Positions 246 to 19,427 of a stretch of 20,000 nt of DNA are shown one piece after another. The notes under the pieces were generated by a model. It saw nothing but the letters and a program-made list of their open reading frames with translations, did not search any database and had not been told where the DNA came from. The position numbers were made by a program, and so were the translations under genes. This stretch comes from an uncultured virus (IMG/VR IMGVR_UViG_3300018080_000160) (taxonomy: Duplodnaviria; Heunggongvirae; Uroviricota; Caudoviricetes), in the IMG/VR virus record IMGVR_UViG_3300018080_000160; one strand, written 5' to 3'. Positions within the stretch are counted from its first letter, which is position 1. Each line of letters opens with the position of its first letter.

Positions 246-1208
246 TTACCTCGCGCTGCTCTTCTTCTTGGCGGTTCGAGTTCGTTTATTCAACTGCGAT
301 GCAATCCACATCACTGCAATCTTTGGATGCGCTCCAACCGCGATTCGGTAATCTGCCTCTGCGATAAGAGCGATTAGATTACGCTTAGCAGATTCGCTAA
401 TCTTACTTTCGATTGTGTAGTCGAGCAACTCGGTCAAGAACTGTCTCTCGCTGACGGAGAGTTTTTCGACCACATCTACAACGAACGAACCAGTTTGGGT
501 GATACTGCTATTGATAGCAATCTTTACGAATTTAGAACACGCTTTTCGAACGCCGCTGCCAAACACAGAGATGTCACCTCCCTTTTCGTACACGCCAAGC
601 ATCTTAATCGCGTGGCGCATCTGACCGTTGGAAGATTTGACGATCTCGTTCAAATCATTGTCATCGTACTCGACTTTTTCTCGTTTGGCCACCTCCTTCA
701 AGCGTTCAATTATCGCGTCGTCCTCGATGGGTCGAAATCTGGCAATGAAGCAACGGTCAAGTATAGCTGGGTGAATCTTTGATTCGTCATTTGCAGTGAA
801 TAGACAAAGGACATTCCGCGATCTGGTTTCTAAATCTCGACGAAATCCTTGCTGTGCTGCCGTACTCATATTATCGATCTCCTCACCCACGAAAATCTTA
901 CGCCTACCACTCGTAAAGCAAGCAGTAGACATAAATTTCGTAAACGGGCCACGGAGATTGTCTATTCTACCGTCTTTGGAAGCATTCACTTCCATAAAAT
1001 CGCGCTCGCCAACGGAAAACGATTTGCGTATCACGTTAATACAGCTCGTCTTGCCCGTACCCGGCGGCCCTACAAATAGAACATGAGGCATCTTCTCTCT
1101 CGGGTCGTTTTTCTCCTTTTCGACTAATACCCTCAATCTTTTCAAGACTTTCTCGTTCCCTTTCAAGTCTTTCCACGAACGGGGCCTGTATCTAACTTCA
1201 AGACTCAT
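246..1208 (-). CDS. rfcS: Replication factor C small subunit-like clamp loader (AAA+)
   Basis: RFC boxes are visible: RYRPRSWKDLKG, PHVLFVGPPGTGKTS (Walker A), EVNASKDGRID, GEEIDNMSTAAQQGFRR, ANDESKIHPAILDRC (SRC-like) and GQMRHAI. Length is 320 aa. Confidence 0.92.
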   Translation of the reverse strand: MSLEVRYRPRSWKDLKGNEKVLKRLRVLVEKEKNDPREKMPHVLFVGPPGTGKTSCINVIRKSFSVGERDFMEVNASKDGRIDNLRGPFTKFMSTACFTSGRRKIFVGEEIDNMSTAAQQGFRRDLETRSRNVLCLFTANDESKIHPAILDRCFIARFRPIEDDAIIERLKEVAKREKVEYDDNDLNEIVKSSNGQMRHAIKMLGVYEKGGDISVFGSGVRKACSKFVKIAINSSITQTGSFVVDVVEKLSVSERQFLTELLDYTIESKISESAKRNLIALIAEADYRIAVGAHPKIAVMWIASQLNKRTRTAKKKSSAR

Positions 1209-1768
1209 TTTTGTTTCTCCTTTTTTTCTGATATTTCTGCTAAGTAACGCATCTTTTCGTCGATAAGCACTTCCAAATCTTTAAATTGGGAGAGCTTCTC
1301 GTCAACTTCTATTTTTACATCAATTAATACATTCAAAAGTCTATCAATGTCTATTAACTCTATCTTTTTAGTAATAACAGCAACATTTGCATCACAAGGC
1401 AGCCCAGATTCGATAGTTTTTACCATACTTTCGATTTTGTTAACTCCAGTCTGCGAACGAAACCACTCGTGCGGAATCTGCAAGATTAGGAGCTGCTTCT
1501 TTATTTGACTTCTCGCAAGAAAAATCTGGTCAAGAGTAAAATGATTTTTACAGTTATGACAAAGGTATTGGGGAGATAGAGGAACAGTAGGTTGTGCAAC
1601 ACTCTTCTGTGCTATCTTAATTGTGCTTGAACTCCCACATAAGGGACATTCAGGCGATTTTGGTGGTTGGAACTTGTGATTACAGTTCGGACACACGAAT
1701 ATCTGAGATACTGGGTCGAAATGGGCTAAGCCGCTACACATTGGACATAAATCTACTTTGTTCGAAAT
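1205..1768 (-). CDS. Double Zn-ribbon protein with a C-terminal coiled-coil; start probably ATT at 1768 rather than ATG at 1741
   Basis: CPNC, CPLC and CHNC are in the track ORF. Extending upstream in frame gives ISNKVDLCPMC, which completes a fourth CxxC. GGGGGT lies 7 nt before the ATT and an in-frame TGA at 1772-1774 bounds it. Confidence 0.7.
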   Translation of the reverse strand: MSNKVDLCPMCSGLAHFDPVSQIFVCPNCNHKFQPPKSPECPLCGSSSTIKIAQKSVAQPTVPLSPQYLCHNCKNHFTLDQIFLARSQIKKQLLILQIPHEWFRSQTGVNKIESMVKTIESGLPCDANVAVITKKIELIDIDRLLNVLIDVKIEVDEKLSQFKDLEVLIDEKMRYLAEISEKKEKQK

Positions 1769-2868
1769 ATGTCAAACCCCCCGCGTTTTTTGCTGCGTTT
1801 TTTCGATGTTCGTTTTTTAGGTTTTCTGCGCTTGGCGGTTTTCTTTTTCACGGTTGCTTTCTTGTCTTTTAGATTCCATTTCCGTCGCGTTGTAGTATCT
1901 GGGGTGACAATGTGAATCTTTTGAGGGATTATACTGAATGCAACTGTGGCCATTATCATTTTCTTTTTTGCAACATAAACGAACATCGAGATTTTATCGA
2001 CCACTTCGCGGTTATGTGCGTTAAGATTCTGTTCGGCGAGGTATATAACCAAAGTGGTTAGATTGATTTTCTGCTCTTTCAGAATTGCGTACACTCTCTG
2101 TCTGTCTGTGTTTATCAATACTTGCCCTACAATGTCTTTCACGCGCATCTGCTTGACTTCGTTCCTACTCGTGGCTCCATACTTCAAGATTTGGATTCCT
2201 TTGTAAAGTGGGTACATCTTAGCCGCTTTTTTGATAATCTTAACTGAAAGATTCGGGAAAAGATGTGTTAGAACAGCGGTACGAGTCGTCTCATTAGCCT
2301 CCTTAAACTCTATCACCTCTGCATTCAAGGAGATTTCTTTTTTACGGAGTTTGTAGGTTCTTTTCAACATCTTCGGAGCTATCCGCGTGATAATAATACA
2401 TGGAACGCGACAAGCATCCATCAACTCATTCAACTGCAGCATTGTTTGTTTATTGAACTTATCGAGCGAATCTACCACGACAATCTTTGGTTTGCCAATG
2501 AGGGTTGAATACCCAACTTCCTGAAAGAGTTCTTTAATTTTCTTTCGTGCCAAATCAACAAACACAAGTTCATGCGTGTTTTTGAATTTCTCGTTCACAA
2601 AATAAGATTTCCCAGTTCCTTGCGGCCCGGAAAGGATAACTAAACGGTTTTGGTACACCGCACGAATAATTCTCGCTCTCTGCTCGGAGTTACCTAAATA
2701 AAATATGCTTTCGTCCGCGTAAATCTGATCTTCTATTGAATCTCGCAAGAACGGGTAATACTTGTAGAGTATTGGGATTATATCTACGCTTTCTCCCGTT
2801 TTTTCGAGAGTTTCGAACAAGTCGAATTGGTTTGCTTTCAAGTGTTTGAAAAACATTTTTAATTTCAT
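1753..2868 (-). CDS. Divergent RFC large subunit-like AAA+ ATPase with a basic C-terminal tail
   Basis: VILSGPQGTGKS (Walker A), KPKIVVVDSLD (Walker B-like) and VPCIII. It is one gene away from RFC-S and ends in a K/R-rich tail followed by GGFDIF, the position of the archaeal RFC-L PIP box. Start set at ATG 2868, 7 nt after GGAGG. Confidence 0.7.
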   Translation of the reverse strand: MKLKMFFKHLKANQFDLFETLEKTGESVDIIPILYKYYPFLRDSIEDQIYADESIFYLGNSEQRARIIRAVYQNRLVILSGPQGTGKSYFVNEKFKNTHELVFVDLARKKIKELFQEVGYSTLIGKPKIVVVDSLDKFNKQTMLQLNELMDACRVPCIIITRIAPKMLKRTYKLRKKEISLNAEVIEFKEANETTRTAVLTHLFPNLSVKIIKKAAKMYPLYKGIQILKYGATSRNEVKQMRVKDIVGQVLINTDRQRVYAILKEQKINLTTLVIYLAEQNLNAHNREVVDKISMFVYVAKKKMIMATVAFSIIPQKIHIVTPDTTTRRKWNLKDKKATVKKKTAKRRKPKKRTSKKRSKKRGGFDIFRTK

Positions 2869-3350
2869 TACCAGTCCTCCCATAGTCGTTCTAACAATTT
2901 CTCTTTTGATTTTTGCTTTCTGGTGAATTCTGCTATCTGTTGTTGAACCACCGAGTCTAAATATGTCCTTACTGGGTCTGATATTGTATCGAATGCAAGC
3001 GTCCCCTCCACTTCATCTGTCGTGTAAAGCCCGACCCTACTCACAATCATCATATCATCAATTATAGTAGATTTACCGTCCTTTTCGAGGCGTAATGTTA
3101 ATGGGTCGCGGTTCATTATGTTTCTACACAACAGAACTTCTTGTAAATCGTCTACTTCTACTATAATTCTATATCGAGGTGATCCTTCTGTTTTGAAATA
3201 CTGTTTGCGTTCACCATTAGGTTCCATAATAACAACAGGAACATGCTGCGTCTCAGTCACCACTGTCATACTGCGTACAGAAACGGATATTTCCTCTCCT
3301 CTATCTTTAAAATCTACAAACAAATTACTTTCTGTGCCAGTGTTTGTCAA
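2868..3350 (-). CDS. Hypothetical protein (160 aa)
   Basis: Overlaps both neighbours in the leftward array and has a GGGAGG RBS; no recognisable motif. Confidence 0.65.
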   Translation of the reverse strand: MTNTGTESNLFVDFKDRGEEISVSVRSMTVVTETQHVPVVIMEPNGERKQYFKTEGSPRYRIIVEVDDLQEVLLCRNIMNRDPLTLRLEKDGKSTIIDDMMIVSRVGLYTTDEVEGTLAFDTISDPVRTYLDSVVQQQIAEFTRKQKSKEKLLERLWEDW

Positions 3351-5753: not shown

Positions 5754-6735
5754 TCTCGAAGACAAAGATGCAGATGAAATCCTCGATCTATTTCAAAAGA
5801 TGGAGGAATTTGGCGACATCAAACGATTTGTTATCGTTCTCTGGGGGCCTGAAAAGGTGGGTAAAACACATGTAGCTCTAACAGCATCGCGTTTAATCCC
5901 CAAAAACCCTACTATATCTTCAGAGCTCCGCGAGATGCTGAAGGATGGTCGCGTAATTCTCGGAGAGCCTGTCTGGCTTATCGACACGGAAGGTAAATCC
6001 CCAAAATTAAAAGATAAGTTCACTGGGAGAGATATTCGCATTCTTCCGGTGTGGGTTCCCGATGAAAACAACCCACTGAAGCCAGATGTGGAGAAATCTT
6101 TGAAGAATTTGATGTATGCTCTCATTGCTATGTCAAAACAGCCGAAAGGGACTCTCGTTATCGACTCGTGGACTGACCCTAACTCGTGGGCAAGAAAGCT
6201 CGTGCAAAAGAAACTGGTCGAAAACGAAGCAGAAGGCTGGGAACTCGGGGAACTCATCCCACTAAAGCCTACAGACTACGAGGGCCGCAATGACATCATG
6301 GACTTCATTCTCTATTACCTTCAAAATTACATCAAAAACATGCACGTAATCTTGACGGTGCGCGGAGAACCGAAGTGGGTCACGAACTCGGATGGAAAGC
6401 GGCCACATCCCGGCCCGCTTGCCAAGAAATGCAATAAAAAGACAATGTTCTTCGCAGATGTCGAAATCAAGCTCCTCAAGAATTTGTACGATGATGGAAC
6501 TGCTGAGCGCGTTGGAAGTTTGATTACAAGTGAGTTTGACGATGATGACCCTATTTCAAAAGATTGGGTAAACCCGAATATACCAAAAATCATCGACGAC
6601 CTCAAGGACTTCGCCATCAAGAAGCGGAAGATGACGGAGAAGAAGAAGCCCAAGAAGAAGAAGGCCAAGAAAAAGAAAACGACAAAGAGGAAATCCAAAA
6701 AGAAATCCAAACGACCAGTAAAACGAGGCGGTTAG
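5731..6735 (+). CDS. P-loop ATPase, AAA_24/Sak4-like (RecA superfamily), with a K-rich C-tail
   Basis: VLWGPEKVGKT (Walker A), WLIDTEG, TLVIDSWT (Walker B), HVILT and FFADVEIKL. It lies just downstream of the SSB-like gene. Confidence 0.75.
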   Translation: MAIVEILNLEDKDADEILDLFQKMEEFGDIKRFVIVLWGPEKVGKTHVALTASRLIPKNPTISSELREMLKDGRVILGEPVWLIDTEGKSPKLKDKFTGRDIRILPVWVPDENNPLKPDVEKSLKNLMYALIAMSKQPKGTLVIDSWTDPNSWARKLVQKKLVENEAEGWELGELIPLKPTDYEGRNDIMDFILYYLQNYIKNMHVILTVRGEPKWVTNSDGKRPHPGPLAKKCNKKTMFFADVEIKLLKNLYDDGTAERVGSLITSEFDDDDPISKDWVNPNIPKIIDDLKDFAIKKRKMTEKKKPKKKKAKKKKTTKRKSKKKSKRPVKRGG

Positions 6736-6736
6736 A

Positions 6737-7741
6737 TTGGCAAAAAAGAAGAAAGCTGCAAAGAAGAAGGCGGCCAAGAAAAAGGCGGCCAAGAAAAAAT
6801 CTGCACGGAAGAAGAATGTGGTCGAGTTAGAAGGCCCGAAATCTAAAATTCTTAATCTTTTTTCCGTGCTGGGAATAAAAGGCAAGGAGTTGGACTCGAA
6901 TATGAGTTCAAAAGCTCTACTCACCGAAGGATTCGTTCTTGAAGTGGAAAACGACATCGCATCTTTTTATTCTGGGAACACGGTGAAGGGGATGAATGTC
7001 TTGCTTTATAAGATGGTGGAGCTTGACGGGATAACCGTTAAGTCCGAGGGGCTATGTTATTGTGCCGCAAACGACGAACTCCTTTCTCGCATATACAAGT
7101 GTGAGTCTGGAAAGATGCGAATCTCTATCGGAGATAAGAAAATCGAGATGGTCGATTCCGCGAACCACAAATCCGGATTCACGCAGACCTCAAAGGATGA
7201 AGGCGAAGATCGGGTGAAAGGATGGAAAGATATAATCGAGGACAACATCGGTCAACACACTCGCGGGTATAAATGGTCTGATGCAGATGTAATTGCTTCT
7301 ATGGTAGTTGATGCAGAGGAACTGGCTAAAATCGTCAAATCTGCTGAGATTATGCGTGTAGTGTCTTATCCCATCAAGATTCGGGACGGAAAGGTTATTT
7401 TCTCCGTGGAAAACGAATTCGCGTGGGAATCTCGTGAAATCGAACCTGACGATATTGAGATGGAAGAGGAGGAGTACGAGGCGAATTATCATACAGGGGT
7501 AGATGCTGCACTTAGCAATCTCGAAGAGGAAATCGTCATCAATATGTGTCGGCATCCGGAGGGTGTCGCGGATGTGATGGCCATCTCCAAAGTGGAGGAC
7601 AAATCTGTAACGGTGTTTTACCTTATCGCAATATCGGAAGACGATCTCGACGAACCCGAAGAAGATTTGGGTGAAGAGGAATTCGAGGAAGATTTGGGTG
7701 AAGAGGAACTCGAAGAAGCGGAGGAAGAGAACGATGGTTGA
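6737..7741 (+). CDS. Divergent PCNA-like sliding clamp with (KKKAA)n N-tail and acidic C-tail
   Basis: A core of about 270 aa has a two-domain alpha/beta pattern (ASMVVDAEELAKIVKSAE, IKIRDGKVIFSVE, EEYEANY, VTVFYLIAI; compare PCNA C-terminal YLAP). RFC and PolB are in the same module. TTG start after GAGGCG. Confidence 0.65.
   Translation: MAKKKKAAKKKAAKKKAAKKKSARKKNVVELEGPKSKILNLFSVLGIKGKELDSNMSSKALLTEGFVLEVENDIASFYSGNTVKGMNVLLYKMVELDGITVKSEGLCYCAANDELLSRIYKCESGKMRISIGDKKIEMVDSANHKSGFTQTSKDEGEDRVKGWKDIIEDNIGQHTRGYKWSDADVIASMVVDAEELAKIVKSAEIMRVVSYPIKIRDGKVIFSVENEFAWESREIEPDDIEMEEEEYEANYHTGVDAALSNLEEEIVINMCRHPEGVADVMAISKVEDKSVTVFYLIAISEDDLDEPEEDLGEEEFEEDLGEEELEEAEEENDG
6746..6805 (+). repeat. 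Four 15-bp in-frame tandem units encoding KKKAA x3 and KKKSA
   Basis: aagaagaaagctgca / aagaagaaggcggcc / aagaaaaaggcggcc / aagaaaaaatctgca. Confidence 0.9.
7661..7708 (+). repeat. 27-bp-period duplication in the acidic tail (EDLGEEE x2)
   Basis: gaagatttgggtgaagaggaa occurs at 7661-7681 and 7688-7708. Confidence 0.9.
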
Positions 7742-8000
7742 TGTTCCATACCCAGAAGGAGAAGTGAGATGGTACGGAGGGAGTCACAAAGTCAGAATTC
7801 TCCCGGCTGAATCTTTCAGTGAATGTAAACAACCTTATACTGGCTACACTTCGAAAAAGATTGAATCGCGGTGTTACCCGTGCTTGGTGATGGAAGATTT
7901 CATGACCACGCGCAGCGGGAAGGTATTCAAAGCTGGGGATAAAGTGGTTCTGGCAAAGTGTCTTCTGCCGAGGAAACATCGAAGTCAGTGGAAACGGTGA
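7734..8000 (+). CDS. Hypothetical protein (88 aa)
   Basis: ATG at 7734 overlaps the end of the clamp gene and follows GGAGG; MVDVPYPEGEVRWYGG... Confidence 0.55.
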   Translation: MVDVPYPEGEVRWYGGSHKVRILPAESFSECKQPYTGYTSKKIESRCYPCLVMEDFMTTRSGKVFKAGDKVVLAKCLLPRKHRSQWKR

Positions 8001-8371: not shown

Positions 8372-8611
8372 ATGGTGGAAATAACAGGTGAAAGAAACAC
8401 AATTCTCTATTTGAAGATTCTAAGACTCTATCCAACCGAACCGCTTGAAGATGTTGTCACACGGGTCGTTAATGACTATATCGACAGACATCGTGCTAAG
8501 ATCGAACAAGGCCCGAAAGCAGCAGCACTTCGCTCGCTTGAGACGAAATTAGCGTTGGAGGCAACAAAATCTTTGAATAAAGACATCACGGAGATAGATT
8601 GGAATGAGTAG
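8372..8611 (+). CDS. Hypothetical protein (79 aa), possibly ribbon-helix-helix-like
   Basis: AGGAG RBS, preceded by a T-tract at 8346-8355; strand-helix-helix pattern (LEDVVTRVVNDYIDR). Confidence 0.55.
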   Translation: MVEITGERNTILYLKILRLYPTEPLEDVVTRVVNDYIDRHRAKIEQGPKAAALRSLETKLALEATKSLNKDITEIDWNE

Positions 8612-9461
8612 GTACAAGGAATCTTTGCTTCGGTGGGCTGGCGGGAAGTACCACGCCTTATCAAGAATCATCCCTCTCATCAACCCACGCAAGAATTCCT
8701 GCGAGATTTTCTGCGGATCTGCAGTTATAACTCTCAATCTACCTCTTCTGAGGAGAAGCAAATCGGAAGCGATTGTTGACATCAATTCCCAAATTTCCAA
8801 TTTTTTTCGAGTTATTAGAGATAAACCAGACGAATACATGGAAAGGATGAAATACACGTTCTCAGGGGATGATTGGGTTGAGGAACTCGAAGCTCAGTCG
8901 GACGATGTTAGTCGTGCTATGTGTTTTTACCTCAAGAACCGCAATTCTTTTGCCGGGTTTGGCGATTTTGCTACCCGTGAAGGGATTGTCTACTCCTTCG
9001 GTAACAACCCAATCATAAAGGACGTGACTTGGTGGGCTGAACGTCTTCGGAATGTGCGGATTTATCGTTTAGACTTTAGAGATGCACTCAAACGGGTAAA
9101 CGGACTTGACACTGATTGGGTTCTCATTTTAGATCCCCCTTATCCTAAAGCTGGGAAGAAAGGGGAGCGTATGTATTGCGGGGAAACCGAGAACGGGAAG
9201 GAAGACCTCGGATTCACCGAAAAGGACACGCGAGATTTATGTAAATTACTTCACGAATCACATCACGAAATCTTTCTTACATATCCAGATAAACCACTTA
9301 TAAGAGATTTATACTCGGATTGGCACATCCGGGAAGCTCGGTGGCACTATCATGCTGCTCCGGGTGAGAAGAAGAACACAAAAACGGAATTGTTTCTATC
9401 AAATAGACCTTTTAAAAAATACTCGGTAAATAAAGTAAGTTTTGATAAATGGAGTGAATGA
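8604..9461 (+). CDS. DNA adenine methyltransferase (D12/Dam-like class)
   Basis: LRWAGGK, EIFCGSA (motif I), DINSQISNFF, LILDPPY (motif IV) and ELFLSN. Confidence 0.92.
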   Translation: MSRYKESLLRWAGGKYHALSRIIPLINPRKNSCEIFCGSAVITLNLPLLRRSKSEAIVDINSQISNFFRVIRDKPDEYMERMKYTFSGDDWVEELEAQSDDVSRAMCFYLKNRNSFAGFGDFATREGIVYSFGNNPIIKDVTWWAERLRNVRIYRLDFRDALKRVNGLDTDWVLILDPPYPKAGKKGERMYCGETENGKEDLGFTEKDTRDLCKLLHESHHEIFLTYPDKPLIRDLYSDWHIREARWHYHAAPGEKKNTKTELFLSNRPFKKYSVNKVSFDKWSE

Positions 9462-9760
9462 AAATGTCAGAGGAAATTTTTGCGGAAGAGGAAAAAAAGA
9501 AAAAGTTCTGCCCGTTCCACCAAAGCGATGATGCAGCTTTCTGCGATGGAGAGGGATGTGAATTGTGGCTCGAAGAGGCTGAGATGTGTTGTCTGAAATT
9601 TGCATCTGTAATGATAGCAAACGCACTAACCCCGATGGATGTAATGGCAACGCTTATGGAGCATAAGGGAGTAGAATCTCAACCCAAATCTGAAATCGAC
9701 CAAGAATTAGACATAATGAACAAAGTTCTTCGTTCTGCACAGAAAAAGGATGAAAAATAA
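9458..9760 (+). CDS. Cys-rich hypothetical protein (100 aa)
   Basis: CPF..C.GEGC..W.....CC motif; overlaps both methyltransferase genes. Confidence 0.7.
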   Translation: MKMSEEIFAEEEKKKKFCPFHQSDDAAFCDGEGCELWLEEAEMCCLKFASVMIANALTPMDVMATLMEHKGVESQPKSEIDQELDIMNKVLRSAQKKDEK

Positions 9761-10797
9761 TGAGCGTAGTTGATGCGTTCTGCGGGTGCGGCGGTCTATC
9801 CCTCGGGTTTCACCGAGCAGGCTTCCAAACCGTACTCGCTATAGATTCTGACGAAGATGCTTGCACATCTTACGAGATGAACTTGGGATTGCAACCTTAT
9901 TGTGGGGACATCCGAAAGTTCCCGTATGATGTGTATATGCACTTTGCTGGGGATTTAGATTTGGTAATTGGCGGTAGTCCGTGTACCGATTATTCTACTG
10001 CCGGACAGCGGAGAATCCGTAGCAAAGTAGCAATGTTATACAAAGAGTTTATTAAATGTGTTGATTATTTCCGCCCAAAAGGATTTCTCTTCGAGAATGT
10101 TAGAGGAATAAAGACTGCTGGAAATATCTGGGACGATTTAAGGCAAACGATGCATAAGATTGGATATAGATTGAAGTGGAAGGAATTACACGCGGCTGAC
10201 TATGGCGTTCCTCAATTTCGCATAAGGATATTTTTGGTAGGAATAAGGGAAGATTTGACATTTAACTACAAATACCCAGTCCCAACTCACGCGCAGAAAC
10301 CTCTCGTGACATTCGATGGGATGAAAACAAAAAAGTGGGTCACAGTACGAGAAGCAATAGGCGACATCATTGGGTTAACTCCAAGGCCATCCTCGACGCC
10401 AGAAGCCATGGAAAACCGACTTAAATCTAATTACAAGAGCGGGAATAGAATTATCGACCCGGACAAACCAGCACCAACGGTAATGACCGGGAATCACGGA
10501 AAAAGTATGGGTATTCTACCAATACAATACACGGATGCTCTCAATAAAGTGAGGAGGAGCGTGGATGAGCCTTCACGCACACTTAGACAAATTCCATTCA
10601 AGTGGCTGAAGCCCACAGATACATTAACCACCTTTTCCGGGCTGGTTCCATTCAGTCCGAGGGAGCAAGCAAGGTTACAATCATTTCCAGACTCGTTCAA
10701 GTTTTACGGTACGTTAAATTCACAGTATAGGCAGATTGGGAATGCTGTACCGCCACTCATGGCTGAAGCACTTGCAAGAGGATTTGTTGGAATATGA
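9760..10797 (+). CDS. DNA (cytosine-5)-methyltransferase
   Basis: DAFCGCGG (I), GGSPC (IV), FENV (VI), YGVPQFRIR (VIII), REQARLQSFP (IX) and YRQIGNAVPP (X). Confidence 0.95.
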   Translation: MSVVDAFCGCGGLSLGFHRAGFQTVLAIDSDEDACTSYEMNLGLQPYCGDIRKFPYDVYMHFAGDLDLVIGGSPCTDYSTAGQRRIRSKVAMLYKEFIKCVDYFRPKGFLFENVRGIKTAGNIWDDLRQTMHKIGYRLKWKELHAADYGVPQFRIRIFLVGIREDLTFNYKYPVPTHAQKPLVTFDGMKTKKWVTVREAIGDIIGLTPRPSSTPEAMENRLKSNYKSGNRIIDPDKPAPTVMTGNHGKSMGILPIQYTDALNKVRRSVDEPSRTLRQIPFKWLKPTDTLTTFSGLVPFSPREQARLQSFPDSFKFYGTLNSQYRQIGNAVPPLMAEALARGFVGI

Positions 10798-10943: not shown

Positions 10944-11103
10944 GATAATAGATTTCGAGGCTCCGTTATACTACGAGACGGACGAGATGATTGAGACCCT
11001 ACAAAAGATGGGTATCATAAAAACGATGAAGGACGACGAGATGACCGAGTTTCGACACAAGATAGTAAAGGTATTGAAGGAGAAGTGGACATTTTATGAT
11101 TGA
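10924..11103 (+). CDS. Small hypothetical protein (59 aa)
   Basis: Translated by hand; AGGAGG upstream; MEKDQNEIIDFEAPLYYETDEM...EKWTFYD; overlaps the dUTPase start. Confidence 0.6.
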   Translation: MEKDQNEIIDFEAPLYYETDEMIETLQKMGIIKTMKDDEMTEFRHKIVKVLKEKWTFYD

Positions 11104-11569
11104 AGCAAACGTAGAATGGAAGAAGATTTTCCCAGATGCAAAGCTTCCGGTAAAGAAGCACGATTGGGATGTTGGATTGGATGCCTATGCTCATAGGTTC
11201 GATAAAGGCATTGGTCGAAATGCAAAAGAAGTTTCCATGTCGAGAGGAGAAATTGTAATCGCTCACCTTGGAATTGCGTGTAGTCTTCCGCAAGGTTTCT
11301 ACATCCAAGTCGTTCCGCGTAGTGGTCTGGCTAAGCGGTATGGTCTTAGCATCGTTAACAGTCCCGGAACAATAGATGCTGGTTACCAAGGAGAGATTGA
11401 TGTGATACTCGTGAAGTTTGGCGAGGAGCATCTACATCTCAAAAAAGGTGAGAGAATCTGCCAACTTATTCTTCGGAGCGTTATCCGAATGAATATCATC
11501 GAAAAGTCAGATTTCTCTTACACGACAGAGCGTGGGGAAAATGGGTTTGGTTCCACCGGAAGAGAATAA
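11096..11569 (+). CDS. dut: Trimeric dUTPase
   Basis: All five motifs are present: VGLD, PRSGLA, NSPGTIDAGYQGEI, GERICQL and RGENGFGSTG. Confidence 0.95.
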   Translation: MIEANVEWKKIFPDAKLPVKKHDWDVGLDAYAHRFDKGIGRNAKEVSMSRGEIVIAHLGIACSLPQGFYIQVVPRSGLAKRYGLSIVNSPGTIDAGYQGEIDVILVKFGEEHLHLKKGERICQLILRSVIRMNIIEKSDFSYTTERGENGFGSTGRE

Positions 11570-11726
11570 ACCCAGATGCCCAAGATGCGGAGGCTTGATG
11601 CAGTGGCGACAGATATCCCAAGACCAACCAAAATTTCTGATTTGTCGGGTTTGCCGATTCAGAATGGGCAACAACGATCTGGAAGATGTAAGATTTGCGG
11701 AGAAAAACGAGAAAAAATTGATTTAA
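11541..11726 (+). CDS. Small Zn-ribbon protein
   Basis: CPRCGGLM...FLICRVC; ATG at 11541 (alternative GTG at 11532). Confidence 0.6.
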   Translation: MGLVPPEENKPRCPRCGGLMQWRQISQDQPKFLICRVCRFRMGNNDLEDVRFAEKNEKKLI

Positions 11727-12004
11727 AGTATGGTTCTTACAATACCTGCGAATGTGGGCGGTCAGATATAACAGATTGGTTATTCTGGACGTCCATAGCA
11801 GGATATACGCGGAGTAAAATGAAAGATTTTTGTGCGAAACGATTAGGTGTTAGAACTCTCACAAACTACGATTGGAAAAATTCCAAGTGGAGGATCTCAG
11901 ATTATGAGCTCGAAAATATTACGCGGGGTGCATCAGTCGGTCGATTTCTTGAACTACAAGAACGCTCCGAGAATGTTTGTGTGGTACAGAGATGCGAGAG
12001 ATAA
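11651..12004 (+). CDS. Possible Zn-finger protein overlapping both neighbours (start uncertain)
   Basis: CKICG...TCECG. It is the only long + strand frame open across 11727-11903 and it overlaps polB by about 100 nt. Confidence 0.4.
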   Translation: MPIQNGQQRSGRCKICGEKREKIDLKYGSYNTCECGRSDITDWLFWTSIAGYTRSKMKDFCAKRLGVRTLTNYDWKNSKWRISDYELENITRGASVGRFLELQERSENVCVVQRCER

Positions 12005-14720
12005 ATACAGACGCAGACTCTTGGAAATCACTAACTTCTCACCCCATTTTTATGTTGAAGGCGACCAGCGCGGCGTGAATAGCCCGTACATCAAGAAGGC
12101 GTACTATGATAGGTACGTAAATCGAAACTTGCAAGGCGAACGTGTCACAAAAATTGAAACTAATATCTCGTCAGATGTTCGACATCTTCGGGATAATGAA
12201 TTTGATGGCATGCAAACCTACCAAGCAGCTATTCTACTTCCCCGAACCTTTCTCATCGCTAACAGAATCACTTCTGGATTCCATATTGACGTGAACCGTG
12301 TCACAAAAGAGTCACATAGATACAACGGATCTCTGATATACAAGACAAGAACAGAACACCTGAAACCAAGCTCAAAAATCTATGTAGCTCCCCGAATTCA
12401 ATACGGCGACTTCGAGATTGACAACTCGGACGGTTCTCTGGCAGATGCTACAGTTGGAGACCTCCCAATCACCATGTACTCTTGGATAGATTCTTACGAT
12501 CCATTCAAACCGAAGTCTATCGTGTGGCATCCAAAGTGGGCTAACAAACAACCGACACTCGTAAAGAAGGAATACATCTACGAATACACGGGAGAAAAGC
12601 ACGAGTGGCACATACATTGTTTCCCAAACGAAATTGACATGCTCCATTACCTTATCAAAGTCATAGGTCTGAAAGAAGATCCGGACATTATGACTGGCTG
12701 GAACTTCACGGAGTTTGATATGACTTATCTAATCAACCGAATTCGTCATATTAACGCAACATCTCTCGAATCACATAAACCGGAAAATTTCATAGATATT
12801 CGAAGAATTTCTCCGTTATGTAGACTTGCTGACTATCGCGGATGGAGTTCCAGCAACGCGAAGGTTTCCGCTAAAAACGGTAGAGTGTATATACCGGGCC
12901 GAGAAATCCTCGATATGTATAAAGCTTACCGTAAAATGGTTGACCCAGCAGAAGGAAAGAAAGATTCCTATACTCTTGATAATATTGGATTTACCGAGTT
13001 GAAGTTAAGGAAGATTGTTCACGAAGGCAGTGTCGGTCAGTTGTGGATGCGAGACCCGCTCGCCGCGCTAATCTATAATATGCGAGACTCGGAGATATGT
13101 TATTTTCTTGACAATGTAAAAGGAATCTTTAATAACTTCGACACACAACGCAGAGAAGTAGGTTGCTTGTGGAGAGATGTCCTATCTCCGGCTATCGTCT
13201 TAGGTACTGACCAGACTCGGGCTGCCAACAAGAAAGGCATCGTATTACCTACTACTTACGTGCCAGACAAAAATAAGAAGAAAAAATTCAAAGGAGCCAT
13301 CGTTCTCCCAGCAACGGTCGGACTGCACTACAATGTTCTTGCATTTGACCTCAAATCTTTATATCTAAATCTAATCGACCAGTGGAATATATCCCCCGAT
13401 GTCTTCGTGGACACATTATCGAATTTGAAGAAGAAGCACAATAATAGCCAAAAAATCTTATCATCATACGTGCAAAACTATATTCGGACTCCTAACGGGT
13501 TGTTGTGGGAGAAAAGAAAAGATGGCTTTGCAAGAGAACGGGTTAGGCATTATCAAATAGAGCGACAGAAGATTCGGGATAAACACGCGCAGCTAAAAGA
13601 GATCAACGGGGCTGATAATATCGAAGTGAAAAACCTCGACACGCGCCAAAAAGCCTACAAAACATTCAGTTTGGTCTTCTGGGGAGTATTCGGACACGAA
13701 GGAAGCGAACTCTACTGGGAACCGATGGCTGAGGCTGTTACATCTTCGGGACGTACAGTAATAAATTTCACGAGAGATAGAGTCGAGAGTACCTTAATGC
13801 AGAAAAAACTCGAACTACAATTCGGAGAAGTCAAGGATCTTCGTGTAGTTTACGGTGACACTGATTCAGTCTATGTGCTTGTTCAATTTACTGACGAAAT
13901 GCTAAATCAAGACATGGATTTTATGTGTGATGTTGCAGATTACATCTCGAAATTCTTGAATGATGGTTACCCGTTACTCGCAAAGAAGTATAATTGTCCG
14001 ACAAATTGCATGCACATCCGTTGCGAGAAGATTTACAAGTCCTACTTCATGACCGTGACCGGGAAAGGAACTGCCGGGAAGAAGCGGTACGTGGGATTAA
14101 AAGTAAGGGAGTTACTTCAAGAGAGAGGGAAGGAGAGATGGATTGTCACGAATAAAGAGGACATCAAAGGCTTCGAGTCCAGACGCAGCGATAACTCTAA
14201 AGTTGGTAAGGACTTCCAGAAATCTATATTCAGTATTCTAATGCACGGAAAAGGGATTAAAGATATCAGAAGAAAACTCAAACATTTAATTAGAAAAACG
14301 CAAATGGAATTTTTCTCTGGGAACCACGCACTTACTGATATTGCAATACCGAAAGGTATATCCAGACCGCTTGGTTCATACGGTAAGTTAAATCCTCATA
14401 GTGGGCGAAGAAGTAGTATTCCTATTCATGTCCGAGCAGCTAAATATTCTAACCAGAACTTCAAGACGAACTACAATGGTGGGTCAAAGGTGTATTATAT
14501 CTACGTGGAAGATGTCCCTCGAATCTACCCAAAGACAGATGTGATTGCTTTCCAGTACGACCACGAAGTTCCGAAAGGTGTAGTGGTAGATTATAATAAG
14601 ATGTGGGAGAAACAATTTATAAAGAAAGCAGAGGCTATATTTCGCGGGCTGAATACTACCTACAAGCAGATCGTTGGAGGAGTGTTCAAAAATGCATTTG
14701 ATTCGTGGGATTCTAACTAA
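11904..14720 (+). CDS. polB: Family B DNA polymerase with 3'-5' exonuclease
   Basis: ExoI YGDFEID, ExoII GWNFTEFD, ExoIII YNMRD; motif A FDLKSLYLN, motif B QKAYKTFSLVFWG, motif C YGDTDS; KKRY and KGFESRRSD. Start set at ATG 11904 (GGAGG upstream; VDF..P..F.W.R..FSPHFYV matches the archaeal PolB N-terminus). Confidence 0.96.
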   Translation: MSSKILRGVHQSVDFLNYKNAPRMFVWYRDARDKYRRRLLEITNFSPHFYVEGDQRGVNSPYIKKAYYDRYVNRNLQGERVTKIETNISSDVRHLRDNEFDGMQTYQAAILLPRTFLIANRITSGFHIDVNRVTKESHRYNGSLIYKTRTEHLKPSSKIYVAPRIQYGDFEIDNSDGSLADATVGDLPITMYSWIDSYDPFKPKSIVWHPKWANKQPTLVKKEYIYEYTGEKHEWHIHCFPNEIDMLHYLIKVIGLKEDPDIMTGWNFTEFDMTYLINRIRHINATSLESHKPENFIDIRRISPLCRLADYRGWSSSNAKVSAKNGRVYIPGREILDMYKAYRKMVDPAEGKKDSYTLDNIGFTELKLRKIVHEGSVGQLWMRDPLAALIYNMRDSEICYFLDNVKGIFNNFDTQRREVGCLWRDVLSPAIVLGTDQTRAANKKGIVLPTTYVPDKNKKKKFKGAIVLPATVGLHYNVLAFDLKSLYLNLIDQWNISPDVFVDTLSNLKKKHNNSQKILSSYVQNYIRTPNGLLWEKRKDGFARERVRHYQIERQKIRDKHAQLKEINGADNIEVKNLDTRQKAYKTFSLVFWGVFGHEGSELYWEPMAEAVTSSGRTVINFTRDRVESTLMQKKLELQFGEVKDLRVVYGDTDSVYVLVQFTDEMLNQDMDFMCDVADYISKFLNDGYPLLAKKYNCPTNCMHIRCEKIYKSYFMTVTGKGTAGKKRYVGLKVRELLQERGKERWIVTNKEDIKGFESRRSDNSKVGKDFQKSIFSILMHGKGIKDIRRKLKHLIRKTQMEFFSGNHALTDIAIPKGISRPLGSYGKLNPHSGRRSSIPIHVRAAKYSNQNFKTNYNGGSKVYYIYVEDVPRIYPKTDVIAFQYDHEVPKGVVVDYNKMWEKQFIKKAEAIFRGLNTTYKQIVGGVFKNAFDSWDSN

Positions 14721-14732
14721 AGGAGTGGTTAT

Positions 14733-15023
14733 ATGTTAAAACTAAAAGATGAATATTTCGATATATTTCTCGATTTTGTTGTAGGATGTATTCCGGATAA
14801 GTATTATCCCGAAGGAGATGCGCAAAACATCCAAACCGGGGCACATACTTGTTTGGAAGTGAAAGAAGCAGTTAGATTAACGACTGTGGAGTTTGGTTTA
14901 CCGGAGAAAGCTTTTTTCTCGTATAAGATTGATTATATTGACGGAAACATAGTCGGCGAGGTTCAAATTAACGAATTCTTGCTAACTGAATCGCAAAAGG
15001 GGGAGTTTTGTGTTGAAGTTTAA
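14733..15023 (+). CDS. Hypothetical acidic protein (96 aa)
   Basis: AAGGAGTG RBS; fills the polB-helicase gap. Confidence 0.7.
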   Translation: MLKLKDEYFDIFLDFVVGCIPDKYYPEGDAQNIQTGAHTCLEVKEAVRLTTVEFGLPEKAFFSYKIDYIDGNIVGEVQINEFLLTESQKGEFCVEV

Positions 15024-16803
15024 TATACAGCTAACGAACGAGTTCGCTGTTACTATCGAGGAAATGTTCTCCTCGAACGGTAAGAGAAAAGTCTGGAAGT
15101 TTAATGTAAATCCGAAAAACGAGGGAGATGAATGCGGCTTCCCGTCAGTGGAGGCTCCAGATCAGTTCTGGCTCAAGAAACGATTTCGTGACGAGCTGCG
15201 CAATGACCTTATCAAGTATATAGAGGAGTTCCAACCCAAAGATCCAGACGACAAGAACGAGATTTTCAAGAATAGGGATAGAGTCGATAGAGTAGTTGCG
15301 AATCTAACACAGGAAATTGAATCTATTATTGACGATTATAACGATTCCCTCACGAAAAACAAGTGGAAGCAATTAAGATTTAATCCTGAACTGTATGTAT
15401 CTGTTGTGGGATTTCTCGCTGACCTAAACAATCGTAGCGTGGCAGATATTAAGAAGCATATCGAGATCGTGCGAGATAGAAAGAATAAGAAGATTGCAGC
15501 AAAGGGAGGTAACGGGGAAGTTACGAATGAGGAGGTTGCTTCAGAAGTCTTATTCATCAAACCCCCGAAAGATGTCTTCTCGTTCTTTTACAAACGATTA
15601 GATTTAATCATACAGACGCATCACAGTCTATATCAAGACACGACCTACGGTAAACCAATTCATAGATTTAAAGAAGAGTTAATCATCTGCTTGGCAACTG
15701 TATTATCGTTCTGGCTTGGAAGAGACCCGAAATGGGTGCTGTTCATCGGCCCGAGTCGTTCCTTCAAAAGTACCCATATTAACTTCTTCCAGACGCTTAA
15801 CAAAATTATAACTTTCGAAGTGGATATGATGACAGCAAATGCATTAATGTCTGGTGCGGAAGATGTCGAATCTTTTATGCACTTACTTGATGAGAAATGT
15901 CAGTTGATGGACGAGATGGGAACTTTTCTCTCGATGCGAAAAGATGTAGTCATCAAACTACTCTCCGAATACACCGTTGCGTATAAAGGATGGGCGAGTA
16001 AAGCAAGCGGTTCCACGAAAACGATGGAAACTGTTATTGCGAGATTTAACTGGCTTGCAGGCATAACAAACGAGAAATTCCAAGAACTATACGATCTCTT
16101 CCGGACGATAGGTTCTCGGTTCATTACATTCGAGTTTCCAGTTTATGCACAAGCAGAATGGAGTTATTACCATGATTTGGTTGATGGAAAGAATCCTTCT
16201 ATCGTTGGTGCGAAGGAGAAGGCACTGAAGAGAATGATTGGTTCCTATATGTATGGAATGTTCCGGTGGCTGAAGGAACACAAACCAATAGTGAAGCTCG
16301 ATAAGGTGAAAGATTTGCTGATTGAAGCTAGCAATTTTTATTCGATTTTCCGAGATCGAGAACCTCCGCTGTGGTTCCGTCAGATGCTTACTGACTTGGC
16401 AAGCACCATCGCTACAATGTTCAACCGCGATGAAGTGTTGGAAGAGGATGTCGAGATATTGATTTCGAGTACGTATTCCTGCAACAAAAAGGTTTACAAC
16501 GAGATCGTAAAAGTATTTGCTGCGAATAGGCGTATTCTGAGTATTGGGGACATAAAGGAAGTTCTTTCTACCTACAAGGAAAGCCATATCCGGAATATAA
16601 TAAATCTGCTTATCCAACGCGAGTTTTTGGAAGAGATGCCTTCCGGATTTATGACACGAGATAAGTGGAGAAATATCATGGAAATGATAAAAAAGCACAT
16701 GAAACGGACGGGGCAATACAATGCCTACACGACCAGCTCAAGTTCCCAAGCAAAGCAAGAATACTTACCAGCAGCAGCAGAAGAAGAGGGGGATTATTAT
16801 TGA
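15010..16803 (+). CDS. Divergent MCM-like AAA+ helicase with a C-terminal winged helix
   Basis: WVLFIGPSRSFKS (Walker A variant), TANALMSG, QLMDEMG (Walker B), FNWLAGIT (sensor 1), GSRF (Arg finger) and a C-terminal wHTH pattern. It lies between polB and the primase. Confidence 0.7.
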   Translation: MLKFNIQLTNEFAVTIEEMFSSNGKRKVWKFNVNPKNEGDECGFPSVEAPDQFWLKKRFRDELRNDLIKYIEEFQPKDPDDKNEIFKNRDRVDRVVANLTQEIESIIDDYNDSLTKNKWKQLRFNPELYVSVVGFLADLNNRSVADIKKHIEIVRDRKNKKIAAKGGNGEVTNEEVASEVLFIKPPKDVFSFFYKRLDLIIQTHHSLYQDTTYGKPIHRFKEELIICLATVLSFWLGRDPKWVLFIGPSRSFKSTHINFFQTLNKIITFEVDMMTANALMSGAEDVESFMHLLDEKCQLMDEMGTFLSMRKDVVIKLLSEYTVAYKGWASKASGSTKTMETVIARFNWLAGITNEKFQELYDLFRTIGSRFITFEFPVYAQAEWSYYHDLVDGKNPSIVGAKEKALKRMIGSYMYGMFRWLKEHKPIVKLDKVKDLLIEASNFYSIFRDREPPLWFRQMLTDLASTIATMFNRDEVLEEDVEILISSTYSCNKKVYNEIVKVFAANRRILSIGDIKEVLSTYKESHIRNIINLLIQREFLEEMPSGFMTRDKWRNIMEMIKKHMKRTGQYNAYTTSSSSQAKQEYLPAAAEEEGDYY

Positions 16804-17258
16804 TTGAGATAGCAATTTTTGTGTTTTTACTTCTTTTCTTCGTCGTCGAAGTGGTTATCGTTCTTAGATTATGGAAGATGACCCCTCAGACAACCGAACA
16901 AAACGAAGAGCAGACATTATCAGCAATAGAAAGAGCAGAAAATGCTCTTACGAAGCATTTCACGGAAGCATTAGAACACACGAATACACACTTGAAGCGT
17001 TCGTTTACTGCCATTATTTCATCGCGTCAAGGTAAACTGGGAGAGATGGAGGCTTTGTTTGCGCTAAAGGAGCGATATATTAGACTAATACCCCTCGGGC
17101 AACCAATAGATTTCATCGGTGTCGGAAATGATACAATCGACTTCATCGAGATAAAGACTGGGAGGGCGAGACTGACGAACGCGGAGAAAAAGATAAAAGA
17201 TTTAATCGAGAAAGGAAAAGTACGATTCCGGGAAATGAGGGAGGCTGATTACCAGTGA
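16800..17258 (+). CDS. Holliday-junction-resolvase-like PD-(D/E)XK endonuclease with an N-terminal transmembrane helix
   Basis: GKLGE, LGQPIDFI and FIEIKTG.ARLT..EK.IK..IE.GKV.F fit the Endonuc_Holl-type pattern. IAIFVFLLLFFVVEVVIVL is hydrophobic. TTG at 16800 overlaps the helicase stop. Confidence 0.8.
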   Translation: MIEIAIFVFLLLFFVVEVVIVLRLWKMTPQTTEQNEEQTLSAIERAENALTKHFTEALEHTNTHLKRSFTAIISSRQGKLGEMEALFALKERYIRLIPLGQPIDFIGVGNDTIDFIEIKTGRARLTNAEKKIKDLIEKGKVRFREMREADYQ

Positions 17259-17500: not shown

Positions 17501-18373
17501 ATGAAAGAACTGAAATTGGTAGCTGATGTATTAGGCTTCAATGTAAGCCCGTCATCTTTGAATACATTCGCCTATTGTCCGTACCAGTGGAAGATAGTTT
17601 ATCTAAATGGAGTTCGTGGGCCGGACAACTTATTTGCAGCCGCAGGATCTACCTTCCACAAGATTTTTGAAGTTGCATCTAAGAACTACGACAAGAACCT
17701 TTTCTTGAAGGAGAGAGCCACACATGTATACAATCTATGTATGGCTGTCCCTCCGGGTGAATGGAAACAACTAATGTCTCCTATTCTCAAAATGTATGCT
17801 ATAGCGGAGAACAAAAGATTCGAAAGAATTCTAAAATTCGTGGATGACGAAGACGAAGCGTGGGATTACTTCAACCCAATAGAAAACGAGAGGAAATACG
17901 TGTTAGATGATGAAGGGATAACCTTCATTGCGGATAGGCAGGTTATGGTTCCTGCTGGATATGCAGGAAATAGAGAGGAAGTTATGGGTGTTATCGACTT
18001 CAAACCAAAAGGAGACGAATACAGCACAACTCTAAATCGCCAACTAACTGCTATGGCTATTCACCTTAAAGATGATAGTGGAAACACACCGGTAGTTGGT
18101 GCTTACTTTTACCGAACAGGAGTAGAGCTTCCTATGAAGAAAGTTCATCACGCTTCTGTGCGAGGAATAAAAAATATCGCAGAGAAGATGTTGAATTGTC
18201 TAAAATGGGGTAGATTTAAGAAGAATCTTGGTTGGGGATGTGCTTGGTGTAGTTTCCAATTGGTATGTAGAGCGAAAATTCCACTCGAAACGTTCTTGGA
18301 GAATAAAAGGAACAGAAACGAAGTAGTAGGAGGTATATTCGATAATGTCAACCACAAAAATACATCTATTTGA
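17501..18373 (+). CDS. Cas4/AddB-like PD-(D/E)XK exonuclease with a 4-Cys cluster
   Basis: SPSSLNTFAYCP, GSTFH, E.E, IADR, IDFK, RQL and C-terminal CAWCSFQLVC. Confidence 0.85.
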   Translation: MKELKLVADVLGFNVSPSSLNTFAYCPYQWKIVYLNGVRGPDNLFAAAGSTFHKIFEVASKNYDKNLFLKERATHVYNLCMAVPPGEWKQLMSPILKMYAIAENKRFERILKFVDDEDEAWDYFNPIENERKYVLDDEGITFIADRQVMVPAGYAGNREEVMGVIDFKPKGDEYSTTLNRQLTAMAIHLKDDSGNTPVVGAYFYRTGVELPMKKVHHASVRGIKNIAEKMLNCLKWGRFKKNLGWGCAWCSFQLVCRAKIPLETFLENKRNRNEVVGGIFDNVNHKNTSI

Positions 18374-19427
18374 CACAATGGCCCGAGAGATTGGCCCAAA
18401 GCGTACTTGGGTTGAAGATAAAAATAAATTCTTCCACTGGTTAAACACAAACAGAACATACGAGGATTGTAGAGTTAGCGTTTACAGGTACGGGAATAGA
18501 CTGCAAGAGAAGAATTATGGGGATGCTGACCCTCGCAGCGTAGTCGTCGATAAAATTTTCATCGACACTGACTCGTTTTATGGTTACGAAGTAATGAAAC
18601 TCTTGAACGAGAAACTCTGCGATCTCGGTTTCGTTCATAGGATTAACTACTCCGGTCGTTACACACCTTACGGTACTATCCCACGCGCTATCGGCTTTCA
18701 CATCTATGTTTTTTGTTACCCAAATATCAACTACCCGAAGCAAGCCCTTTCAAATGCTCAAATCTTCATGGACAAGTGGGTTAGAAAGAAAGCAAAGGTA
18801 GAATTTGGTATAACGGAGGACGATGCTGTTGATTCCGCTATTATCGGTGATGTGATGCGGATGAGCCGATACCCGAACACATTCAACAAGAAGTGGAAGC
18901 GTTGGTGCGTCCCACTCACACAAGAAGACATCGACAACCTCAATCCTTACGATATCTATAAACTTGGTAGTCAACCCAGAAGAGAAGTAAACGGTAATGT
19001 CTGGTTAGGGGAAGGAAAGATTTGGCAGTTACCTCCTAAGTTCGATAAGGATGAATTCGATAAATTCAAACGCCGAAATGTCAATGTGACTAAATCTGAA
19101 TGTGATTGGGCTGAGATGATGGAAGTTTACGATGCGCCTCCGTGTTTGTGGAGTATGTTGAATGACCCGCATCTTGATTACCAAGAAAGATTCTGGTTAA
19201 TCGTGTGTCTGAGAGACCTCGGTTTCACACAAGAGGAGACGGAAACAATACTTGACGACTCACTTGATTACTACAAGTTCATGCATTGTGTAAATCAAGA
19301 ATTGATGACACACAGGTGTTATAATGGTGAACAGCAATCTGCGTACTTTACTGATGGTTGCGCGTTTATGAAGTCTCGGGGTTACTGTCCGGGTAATTGT
19401 GGACGAGATCATCCTATTTACAAGTGA
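18345..19427 (+). CDS. Archaeo-eukaryotic primase: PriS catalytic domain fused to a PriL C-terminal (Fe-S)-like domain
   Basis: AEP motifs FIDTD, SGR..GFHIY and GD..RM.RYPNT.N. The C-terminal part has PPC..L...ERF.L...L..LG and C..MKSRGYC.G.C..DHP. Confidence 0.85.
   Translation: MSTTKIHLFDTMAREIGPKRTWVEDKNKFFHWLNTNRTYEDCRVSVYRYGNRLQEKNYGDADPRSVVVDKIFIDTDSFYGYEVMKLLNEKLCDLGFVHRINYSGRYTPYGTIPRAIGFHIYVFCYPNINYPKQALSNAQIFMDKWVRKKAKVEFGITEDDAVDSAIIGDVMRMSRYPNTFNKKWKRWCVPLTQEDIDNLNPYDIYKLGSQPRREVNGNVWLGEGKIWQLPPKFDKDEFDKFKRRNVNVTKSECDWAEMMEVYDAPPCLWSMLNDPHLDYQERFWLIVCLRDLGFTQEETETILDDSLDYYKFMHCVNQELMTHRCYNGEQQSAYFTDGCAFMKSRGYCPGNCGRDHPIYK

Follow-up and report, generated by a model that had tools for sequence, protein, structure and literature searches.

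How does a DNA polymerase handle an incoming deoxynucleoside triphosphate (dNTP) when consensus residues of its dNTP pocket have been replaced? This question is raised by the polB gene of an uncultured virus (IMG/VR record IMGVR_UViG_3300018080_000160), read in a stretch of 20,000 nucleotides that is referred to here as the window. The initial annotation of this DNA described a full-length family B DNA polymerase (PolB) in which N→L, S→V and Y→W changes in motif B of the fingers occur together with a P→L change in motif A. With moderate confidence we favour the reading that the gene encodes a replicative, proofreading PolB of an uncultured virus whose replication module is of archaeal type, that its hydrophobic pocket is active, selected and compensated, and that its nucleotide discrimination is likely changed.

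The polB gene encodes a full-length family B polymerase of 938 aa. Its likely start is the ATG at 11904, with GGAGGA 8 nt before it; the mechanical open reading frame (ORF) opens earlier, at GTG 11847. The product matched the Pfam families DNA_pol_B (PF00136, 7.6e-42, 144.1 bits) and DNA_pol_B_exo1 (PF03104, 3.6e-20, 72.8 bits), both above the gathering cut-off of 23, and the PHROG family phrog_262 DNA polymerase (3.1e-103). The best NCBIfam match was DNA polymerase II, far under its cut-off. The translation reproduced the motifs as annotated: motif B was found at the same place, 13659-13685, reading KTFSLVFWG within the longer fingers string DTRQKAYKTFSLVFWGVFG (nt 13638-13694), and motif A reads DLKSLYLN. 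The span originally reported, 13347-13868, begins at residue one of motif A and closes with the final residue of motif C. YGDTDS and ExoI-III are normal, as had been stated, and KKRY is intact as well (Table 1). A 142-aa ORF without a family match (11576-12004, plus strand) shares the opening 100 nt of polB, read in a different frame.

Alignment to known structures upheld the four replacements. In a phmmer comparison with chains of the Protein Data Bank (PDB), the query stretch rqkayktfslvfwgvfg pairs with RQrAlKvmaNamYGylG of 5mdn_A, and N→L (L590), S/A→V (V591) and Y→W (W593) are thereby borne out. For motif A, the partners among the chains shown are DFSSMYPN and DLTSLYPS, and P→L (L488) follows. 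Across 122 aligned sequences the L488 column is at least 90% Pro and the L590 column at least 90% Asn, and D169, E171, D272, D482, Y487, K586, D652 and D654 are invariant. Among the motif-B columns that are invariant or nearly so, only Lys (K586) and Gly (G594) are retained by the query. Since the replaced columns are near-invariant, the departure is no chance reading. The catalytic Asp and the steric-gate Tyr of motif A are present with Leu at the consensus Pro; both Asp of motif C are present, as are the 3'-5' exonuclease motifs (FEID, NFTEFD, YNMRD). The full KxxxNSxYG string is absent, a consensus that describes PolBs and does not exclude.

The AlphaFold2 model built on the 122-row alignment has a mean predicted local distance difference test (pLDDT) score of 93.7 and a predicted template modeling (pTM) score of 0.91. 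Foldseek placed E. coli Pol II, RB69 gp43, Pol delta and KOD, many of them ternary complexes, as the top matches at E ~1e-39, with target-normalised template modeling (TM) scores of 0.64-0.81 among the rows shown. The predicted fold is that of a complete family B polymerase with N-terminal, exonuclease, palm, fingers and thumb domains.

Close homologues share the altered motifs. A word-indexed search revealed two, P0003 (53% identity to the query by phmmer, 52% by MAFFT) and P0004 (49%), both carrying QKAYKxFSLVFWGVFGH and DLKSLYLR. An exhaustive HMMER search of 1.84 billion representatives gave 5013 matches, and among the 150 listed only P0003 exceeded 36% identity. A degenerate DNA pattern for FSLVFWGVFG found three stretches in metagenome contigs (L084, L085 and L086) and no match in IMG/VR viral contigs. 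The L085 PolB, on a 65 kb contig, has nearly the same sequence as P0003, in the alignment the L086 PolB and P0004 read the same, and L084 is a third, partial sequence of 625 aa. There are thus four distinct clade members, the relatives being 49-55% identical to the query, and all of them read FSLVFWGVFGH and SLYL. Of two profile-guided scans of viral contigs, one was dominated by T4-like PolBs of ~25% identity and the other gave only distant relatives. Within the collections searched, the full LVxWG combination is confined to this four-member clade. Conservation of LVxWG in a clade had been proposed as a check, with NSxYG in close homologues as the outcome that would overturn the annotation; every close relative instead carries the variant. 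A literature search for the string LVFWG found no relevant paper, the figures and supplements of PMC7544198, whose motif logos may show hydrophobic motif-B variants, lying outside that search.

The variant residues are kept by different codons. Across the four members L488 is encoded by CTA, TTG, CTT and TTG, L590 by TTG, CTT, CTC and CTC, and V591 by GTC, GTA, GTG and GTC. Comparison of L085 with L084 over 625 codons by the method of Nei and Gojobori (NG86) yielded non-synonymous (dN) and synonymous (dS) values of 0.059 and 0.858, a dN/dS of 0.07. By this codon comparison, the polB gene is under strong purifying selection. Because the variant motifs are kept with synonymous codon differences and a dN/dS of 0.07, an error or decay is excluded on the sequence evidence.

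The singularity of the variant was examined in 154 representatives from the word-indexed and exhaustive searches. Motif columns were mapped by phmmer in place of MAFFT columns, which were unusable at motif B in distant intein-bearing rows; several rows were unaligned at motif B. Leu occupies the Asn column in six of the 154, namely P0002, P0003 and P0004 (LVFWG), P0008 (LSYYG), P0026 (LSVYG) and P0032 (LSFYG). Exactly the same six have Leu or Val at the motif-A Pro column (SLYL[NR], TLYLN, SAYVN and ALYVN). The other non-Asn states all occur with Pro (Ser in P0056, Ala in P0128 and P0136, Cys in P0134, Thr in P0142), and the non-Pro states Ala (P0080, P0094, P0097) and Phe (P0039) occur with Asn retained. 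Trp at the Tyr column stands alone in P0138 (NSLWG). With a strict regular expression, both motifs could be called for 181 of 320 proteins and locus ORFs, duplicates between the two being counted, with 162 Pro/Asn, 9 [Leu/Val]/Leu and 10 other combinations. The variant is less singular than it first seemed: the full LVxWG set belongs to the clade only, whereas Asn→Leu/Val/Ala recurs in other archaeal-type PolBs.

Phylogeny suggests that the two replacements are coupled. A tree of 68 rows (the P0002-P0075 rows of 690-1000 aa minus P0007, plus seven hand-picked variant rows) supports the query clade at 100% and places P0008 as its sister (93% by the Shimodaira-Hasegawa-like approximate likelihood ratio test, SH-aLRT), with the canonical P0009/P0010 next (95%). 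P0026 and P0032 stand apart in another part of the tree, and either trait calls for three changes, which fall on the same rows in each case. When the six were placed in one clade, the approximately unbiased (AU) test on 32 hand-picked rows under LG+G4 rejected this (difference in log-likelihood 118.5, p 0.0004). The occurrence of both swaps in the same six rows at three tree positions suggests a coupled replacement of fingers and palm that has arisen more than once. Some PolBs on DPANN-type or unclassified archaeal contigs lack the Asn and keep SLYP, and the dependency is therefore one-way: Pro→Leu/Val has been seen only with Asn→Leu.

Several points weigh against this picture. The clade is tiny, with four sequences, and the three metagenome-scan loci share one contig-name prefix. 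The independent pairs number only two (starred branches) to three (all branches), with which a sign test cannot reach significance. The group for the AU test was set by motif state but tested after the first tree had been seen, and under LG+G4 only; the trait columns were left in the trees. The sister position of P0008 has 93% SH-aLRT in one tree and is unresolved in the other. L126 reads KIMMLSFWG (LSFWG) with SLYPA, hence Asn→Leu without Pro→Leu, and SLYP is also kept by L108 and L116 (KILLVSFFG, with Val) and by L103 and L142 (K..[LM]ASF[FY]G, with Ala). Polymerase activity is predicted from the intact motifs and from selection.

The PolB ORFs of L103, L108, L116, L126 and L142 (KTLMASFFG, KILLVSFFG, KIMMLSFWG) have normal ExoI, SLYP and DTDS, and may be the cells' own polymerases. 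Six T4-like loci with an apparent 'NNLQL...' motif B were a phmmer mis-registration; direct reading gave the canonical KxxxNSAYG in 6/6. Many distant relatives longer than 1000 aa carry large polB insertions that resemble inteins (for example P0155).

The position of the enzyme among known polymerases was assessed by motif and by fold. E. coli Pol II (3k59, query/target TM 0.68/0.81) and RB69 gp43 (TM 0.70-0.72) match best in structure and have the same catalytic, exonuclease and KKRY residues; both are 16-18% identical to the query. RB69 has K560/N564/Y567 and L415/Y416 followed by Pro, whereas the Asn, Tyr and Pro positions of the query are Leu, Trp and Leu. In the sections of Kazlauskas et al. 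2020 that treat PolB motifs (PMC7544198), GWN in ExoII marks the PolII-like clade. The query ExoII reads TGWNFTEFD and thus agrees with that clade, by motif rather than by phylogeny. The same sections describe archaeal B2 enzymes as having a non-conserved ExoI, no ExoIII, a single Asp in motif C and a D(K/R) motif (PMC7544198). Archaeal PolB2 likewise departs from the consensus in its polymerase motifs. The query, in contrast, has ExoI, ExoIII and both motif-C Asp, and is on this description not a B2 polymerase, in agreement with the initial annotation. The PolBs of L126, L108, L116, L103 and L142, on DPANN-type or unclassified archaeal contigs from metagenome-assembled genomes (MAGs), resemble the query in a hydrophobic Leu, Val or Ala at the Asn column, but keep the motif-A Pro and a Ser after the variant residue and are 23-25% identical to it (best tblastn segment).

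The nearest cultured relatives are the haloarchaeal tailed viruses HRTV-27, HATV-2 and HGTV-1. Their PolBs, annotated as DNA polymerase elongation subunit family B, align over 94-96% of the query with the same domain order but are only ~25% identical. Canonical SLYP and NSxYG-type motifs were read in related representatives and haloarchaeal genome loci, not in these three viral enzymes themselves. The G+C content of haloarchaea is far above the 40-47% of the window. Among species genomes, most relatives come from archaea (Halobacteria, Archaeoglobales, Methanoregulaceae and DPANN). Based on the PHROG matches, the haloarchaeal tailed viruses as nearest cultured relatives, and the genes for RFC-like and Hjc-like proteins, the carrier is probably an archaeal virus.

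The canonical residues have described roles in other enzymes. In RB69, according to the parts of PMC3564110 that deal with the nascent base pair, K560 and N564 coordinate the triphosphate, N564 reaching the beta-phosphate via water, Y567 senses the minor groove and sets fidelity, and Y416 stacks on the sugar. PMC8639217, in its account of helix P, describes a kink between N564 and Y567 and ordered waters in the open state. In the polymerase of HSV-1 (herpes simplex virus 1) the homologous Asn contacts the 3'-OH and is the only active-site residue found mutated in drug-resistant strains, with Leu and Val among the substitutions, as the relevant part of PMC5175367 reports. Such strains are viable, and an aliphatic side chain at this position is therefore tolerated by a functioning replicative family B enzyme. 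These region III variants are compatible with replication and alter the recognition of nucleotide analogues (PMC5175367, same part); they are, however, single drug-selected changes in a eukaryotic virus, whereas the query change is ancient, fixed in its lineage and accompanied by three further changes.

By analogy with these enzymes, we propose how the rebuilt pocket may work. The standard chemistry would be retained, with two-metal catalysis by D482 and D652/D654, K586 as general acid and Y487 as steric gate; the KKRY primer grip and the 3'-5' exonuclease with ExoI-III would also be standard. The changed layer would comprise the residues that close over the incoming dNTP, where Asn becomes Leu, Ser becomes Val, the minor-groove Tyr becomes Trp and the motif-A Pro becomes Leu. 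Upon closing of the fingers, L590 may pack on palm residue L488 beside the steric-gate Y487, and this hydrophobic contact would stand in place of the polar, water-mediated one. The restriction of Pro→Leu/Val to an Asn→Leu background fits such an L488-L590 contact. W593 might still offer the minor groove an aromatic face and a donor for hydrogen bonding. The likely outcome would be altered discrimination at the sugar/phosphate end of the nucleotide and possibly altered mismatch sensing, with the intact proofreading exonuclease serving as a buffering backstop. Altered selectivity or fidelity is thus plausible from the roles of the canonical residues in RB69 and HSV-1.

Other explanations of the variant were weighed against this proposal. 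An error of sequencing or assembly, or a paralogue that is decaying or inactive, has nothing found in its favour and is highly improbable: the same residues appear in four independent assemblies with the synonymous differences and dN/dS given above, the 938-codon frame has no interruption and includes every catalytic and exonuclease residue, and no other polymerase is encoded in the replication module of the window or in that of L085. Neutral compensated drift, in which a mutually compensating pair was followed by conservative Ser→Val and Tyr→Trp changes and left an ordinary replicative PolB whose substrate choice is not adaptively altered, deserves more weight, although we consider it unlikely. 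It can draw on the lineages whose Asn column holds Ala, Val, Leu, Ser, Cys or Thr while the remaining motifs are normal, on the lone Trp of P0138, and on the DNA scanned in the window and relatives, where no gene points to a special substrate. Against it speak the conservation of the Asn and Pro columns, the altered analogue sensitivity caused by substitutions at the homologous herpesvirus position (in the relevant part of PMC5175367), and the retention of four changes in one pocket across ~50% divergence, which is unlikely without an effect.

Adaptation to a modified nucleotide had been raised by the initial annotation. The virus would exchange a canonical base, with the hydrophobic pocket tuned to the modified dNTP. 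The altered residues do line the dNTP site (PMC3564110, in the parts cited above), and the contig of an independent Asn→Leu/Pro→Val variant (the P0026 lineage) carries two thymidylate-synthase-family paralogues, a radical S-adenosylmethionine (radical-SAM) protein and a uracil-DNA glycosylase (UDG)-family protein; the short thymidylate synthases may, however, be just the archaeal form. As DNA-modifying genes, the window, L084, L085 and L086 carry only ordinary methyltransferases, which act after synthesis and whose set differs among the relatives. That no base-modification pathway beyond two methyltransferases is visible in the window was confirmed; a dUTPase is also present there. No thymidylate-synthase, TGT/DpdA, QueC or PurZ-type family was found at E up to 0.01-0.1 among the ORFs scanned, which cover 20 kb of the window's contig of up to 78,956 bp and ~31 kb of relatives. 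Phage T4 reportedly polymerizes hydroxymethyl-dCTP with a canonical motif B, and to our knowledge the 2-aminoadenine polymerases are not of family B. The suggestion thus received no support from the DNA scanned, and we regard it as improbable. A bolder idea is that the paired Pro→Leu/Val and Asn→Leu replacement is a recurrent, selected rebuilding of the pocket that dispenses with Asn reading of the 3'-OH/beta-phosphate end and serves a modified-pyrimidine genome or resistance to nucleotide analogues or host manipulation of the dNTP pool, with LVxWG as its most derived form; this, too, is improbable. The active, compensated pocket with likely changed discrimination remains the reading that we prefer.

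As judged from the sequences compared, the dNTP pocket described here is a rare variant of the family B form, maintained by selection; a hydrophobic residue at the Asn position already occurs elsewhere, and it is the LVxWG combination that is rare. Asn and Tyr of motif B and Pro of motif A belong to the best-conserved PolB residues and are recurrent targets of engineering and drug-resistance studies. A natural exonuclease-bearing enzyme in which all three have been replaced over long evolution would indicate that the pocket can be built another way, and would offer a ready scaffold to probe the roles of Asn and Tyr in fidelity, sugar discrimination and analogue acceptance. The one-way coupling is what a fingers-palm contact would predict, and it can be tested. 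If the change should prove to track a modified genome or counter-defence, such viruses could be recognised in metagenomes by this sequence mark.

The polymerase lies in a replication module (Table 1), and the gene order of this module is the same in L085. The 597-aa protein encoded downstream of polB has no Pfam, PHROG or NCBIfam match; its atlas look-alikes are viral clusters, some of them Toprim, Prim-Pol, primase-helicase-type or P-loop MTBMA_p00010, at TM 0.46-0.56. Its counterpart in L085 is a 595-aa ORF (6000-7787, minus strand). The ~596-aa protein lies one short ORF downstream of polB in the window and two ORFs downstream in L085, and by structural likeness may be a replicative helicase.

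Table 1. Sequence features of the window and of related contigs; positions are those of the window unless another locus is named.
Feature	Position	Strand	Evidence or remark
PolB (exonuclease + polymerase domains)	11904..14720	+	Pfam, PHROG, AlphaFold2, Foldseek
ExoI YGDFEID (D169, E171)	12402..12422	+	both residues invariant in 122 sequences
ExoII WNFTEFDMTY, preceded by G (GWN); D272	12699..12728	+	D272 invariant in 122 sequences
ExoIII YNMRD (Y391, D395)	13074..13088	+	nearly invariant in 122 sequences
Motif A DLKSLYLN, aa 482-489	13347..13370	+	catalytic D482 and steric-gate Y487 retained; L488 for near-invariant Pro
Motif B KTFSLVFWG, fingers helix P, aa 586-594	13659..13685	+	K586 and G594 retained; L590 for Asn, V591 for Ser/Thr/Ala, W593 for Tyr
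Motif C YGDTDS, aa 650-655 (D652, D654)	13851..13868	+	both Asp invariant in 122 sequences
KKRY, aa 726-729	14079..14090	+	K726, K727, Y729 nearly invariant in 122 sequences
RFC-like clamp-loader subunit	246..1208	-	phrog_168 7.4e-45; AAA, RFC lid and Rep_fac_C domains
Second AAA+ protein, weak clamp-loader match	1753..2883	-	PF00004 8.8e-5; phrog_168 9.5e-5
Dam-like N6-adenine DNA methyltransferase	8604..9461	+	PF02086 9.3e-16; phrog_56 1.1e-42
C5-cytosine DNA methyltransferase	9760..10797	+	PF00145 9.2e-65
dUTPase	11096..11569	+	PF00692 4.1e-21; phrog_135 5.5e-40
597-aa protein downstream of polB	15010..16803	+	structural look-alikes only; candidate replicative P-loop helicase
Endonuclease related to archaeal Holliday-junction resolvase	16665..17258	+	PF10107 2.8e-8
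PD-(D/E)XK nuclease	17501..18373	+	PF12705 1.5e-12; phrog_69 exonuclease
Putative primase-related protein (weak)	18345..19427	+	phrog_16345 primase 3.1e-4; PriL 2.9e-3, far under cut-off
Methyltransferases, window	8604-10797
Methyltransferases, L085	8028-9014, 11928-12812
Methyltransferases, L086	3-488, 5119-5724
G001 contig C2, L169	3590-4273	-
G001 contig C2, L170	6061-6789	+
G001 contig C2, L171	2717-3472	-
G001 contig C2, L171	6699-7292	+

Virion genes (capsid, portal, terminase) were not found in the 20 kb window by Pfam and PHROG scans, nor were tRNA genes in the window. A Dam-like methyltransferase is encoded near polB in every clade member, including L084, and the second methyltransferase differs: it is a C5-cytosine enzyme in the window and an N6/N4 type directly downstream of polB in L085 and L086. 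L086 also encodes RNase H, a weak HAD/NT5C-like protein and a LAGLIDADG-like ORF (3222-3653, minus strand; weak, 1.7e-4), the last lying directly upstream of polB in that clade member only. Between two clamp-loader-like genes, L085 carries a DUF6884 protein (18386-18886, plus strand, 1.4e-21); at the matching place (1205-1741, minus strand) the window has a 178-aa multi-zinc-ribbon ORF.

Of the other Leu/Val variants, P0008 has no relative among viral contigs, and the independent variant of the P0026 lineage lies on a 66 kb contig (C2 of G001); the cluster member P0159 is named from an Archaeoglobales MAG. The two thymidylate-synthase-family paralogues of C2 are divergent (227 and 242 aa); the loci of these, the radical-SAM and the UDG-family genes are listed in Table 1. 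One scores about equally against cytidine monophosphate (CMP) 5-hydroxymethylase and against thymidylate synthase, and the PDB chains that match the second best, 234-238 aa long, bear the name thymidylate synthase. These genes fit pyrimidine modification and ordinary short archaeal thymidylate synthases equally, and say nothing direct on the LVxWG clade. The contig also encodes primase subunits, an XPB-like helicase, a serine recombinase and a 2020-aa ORF, and might represent a virus or mobile element that has a pyrimidine metabolism of its own.

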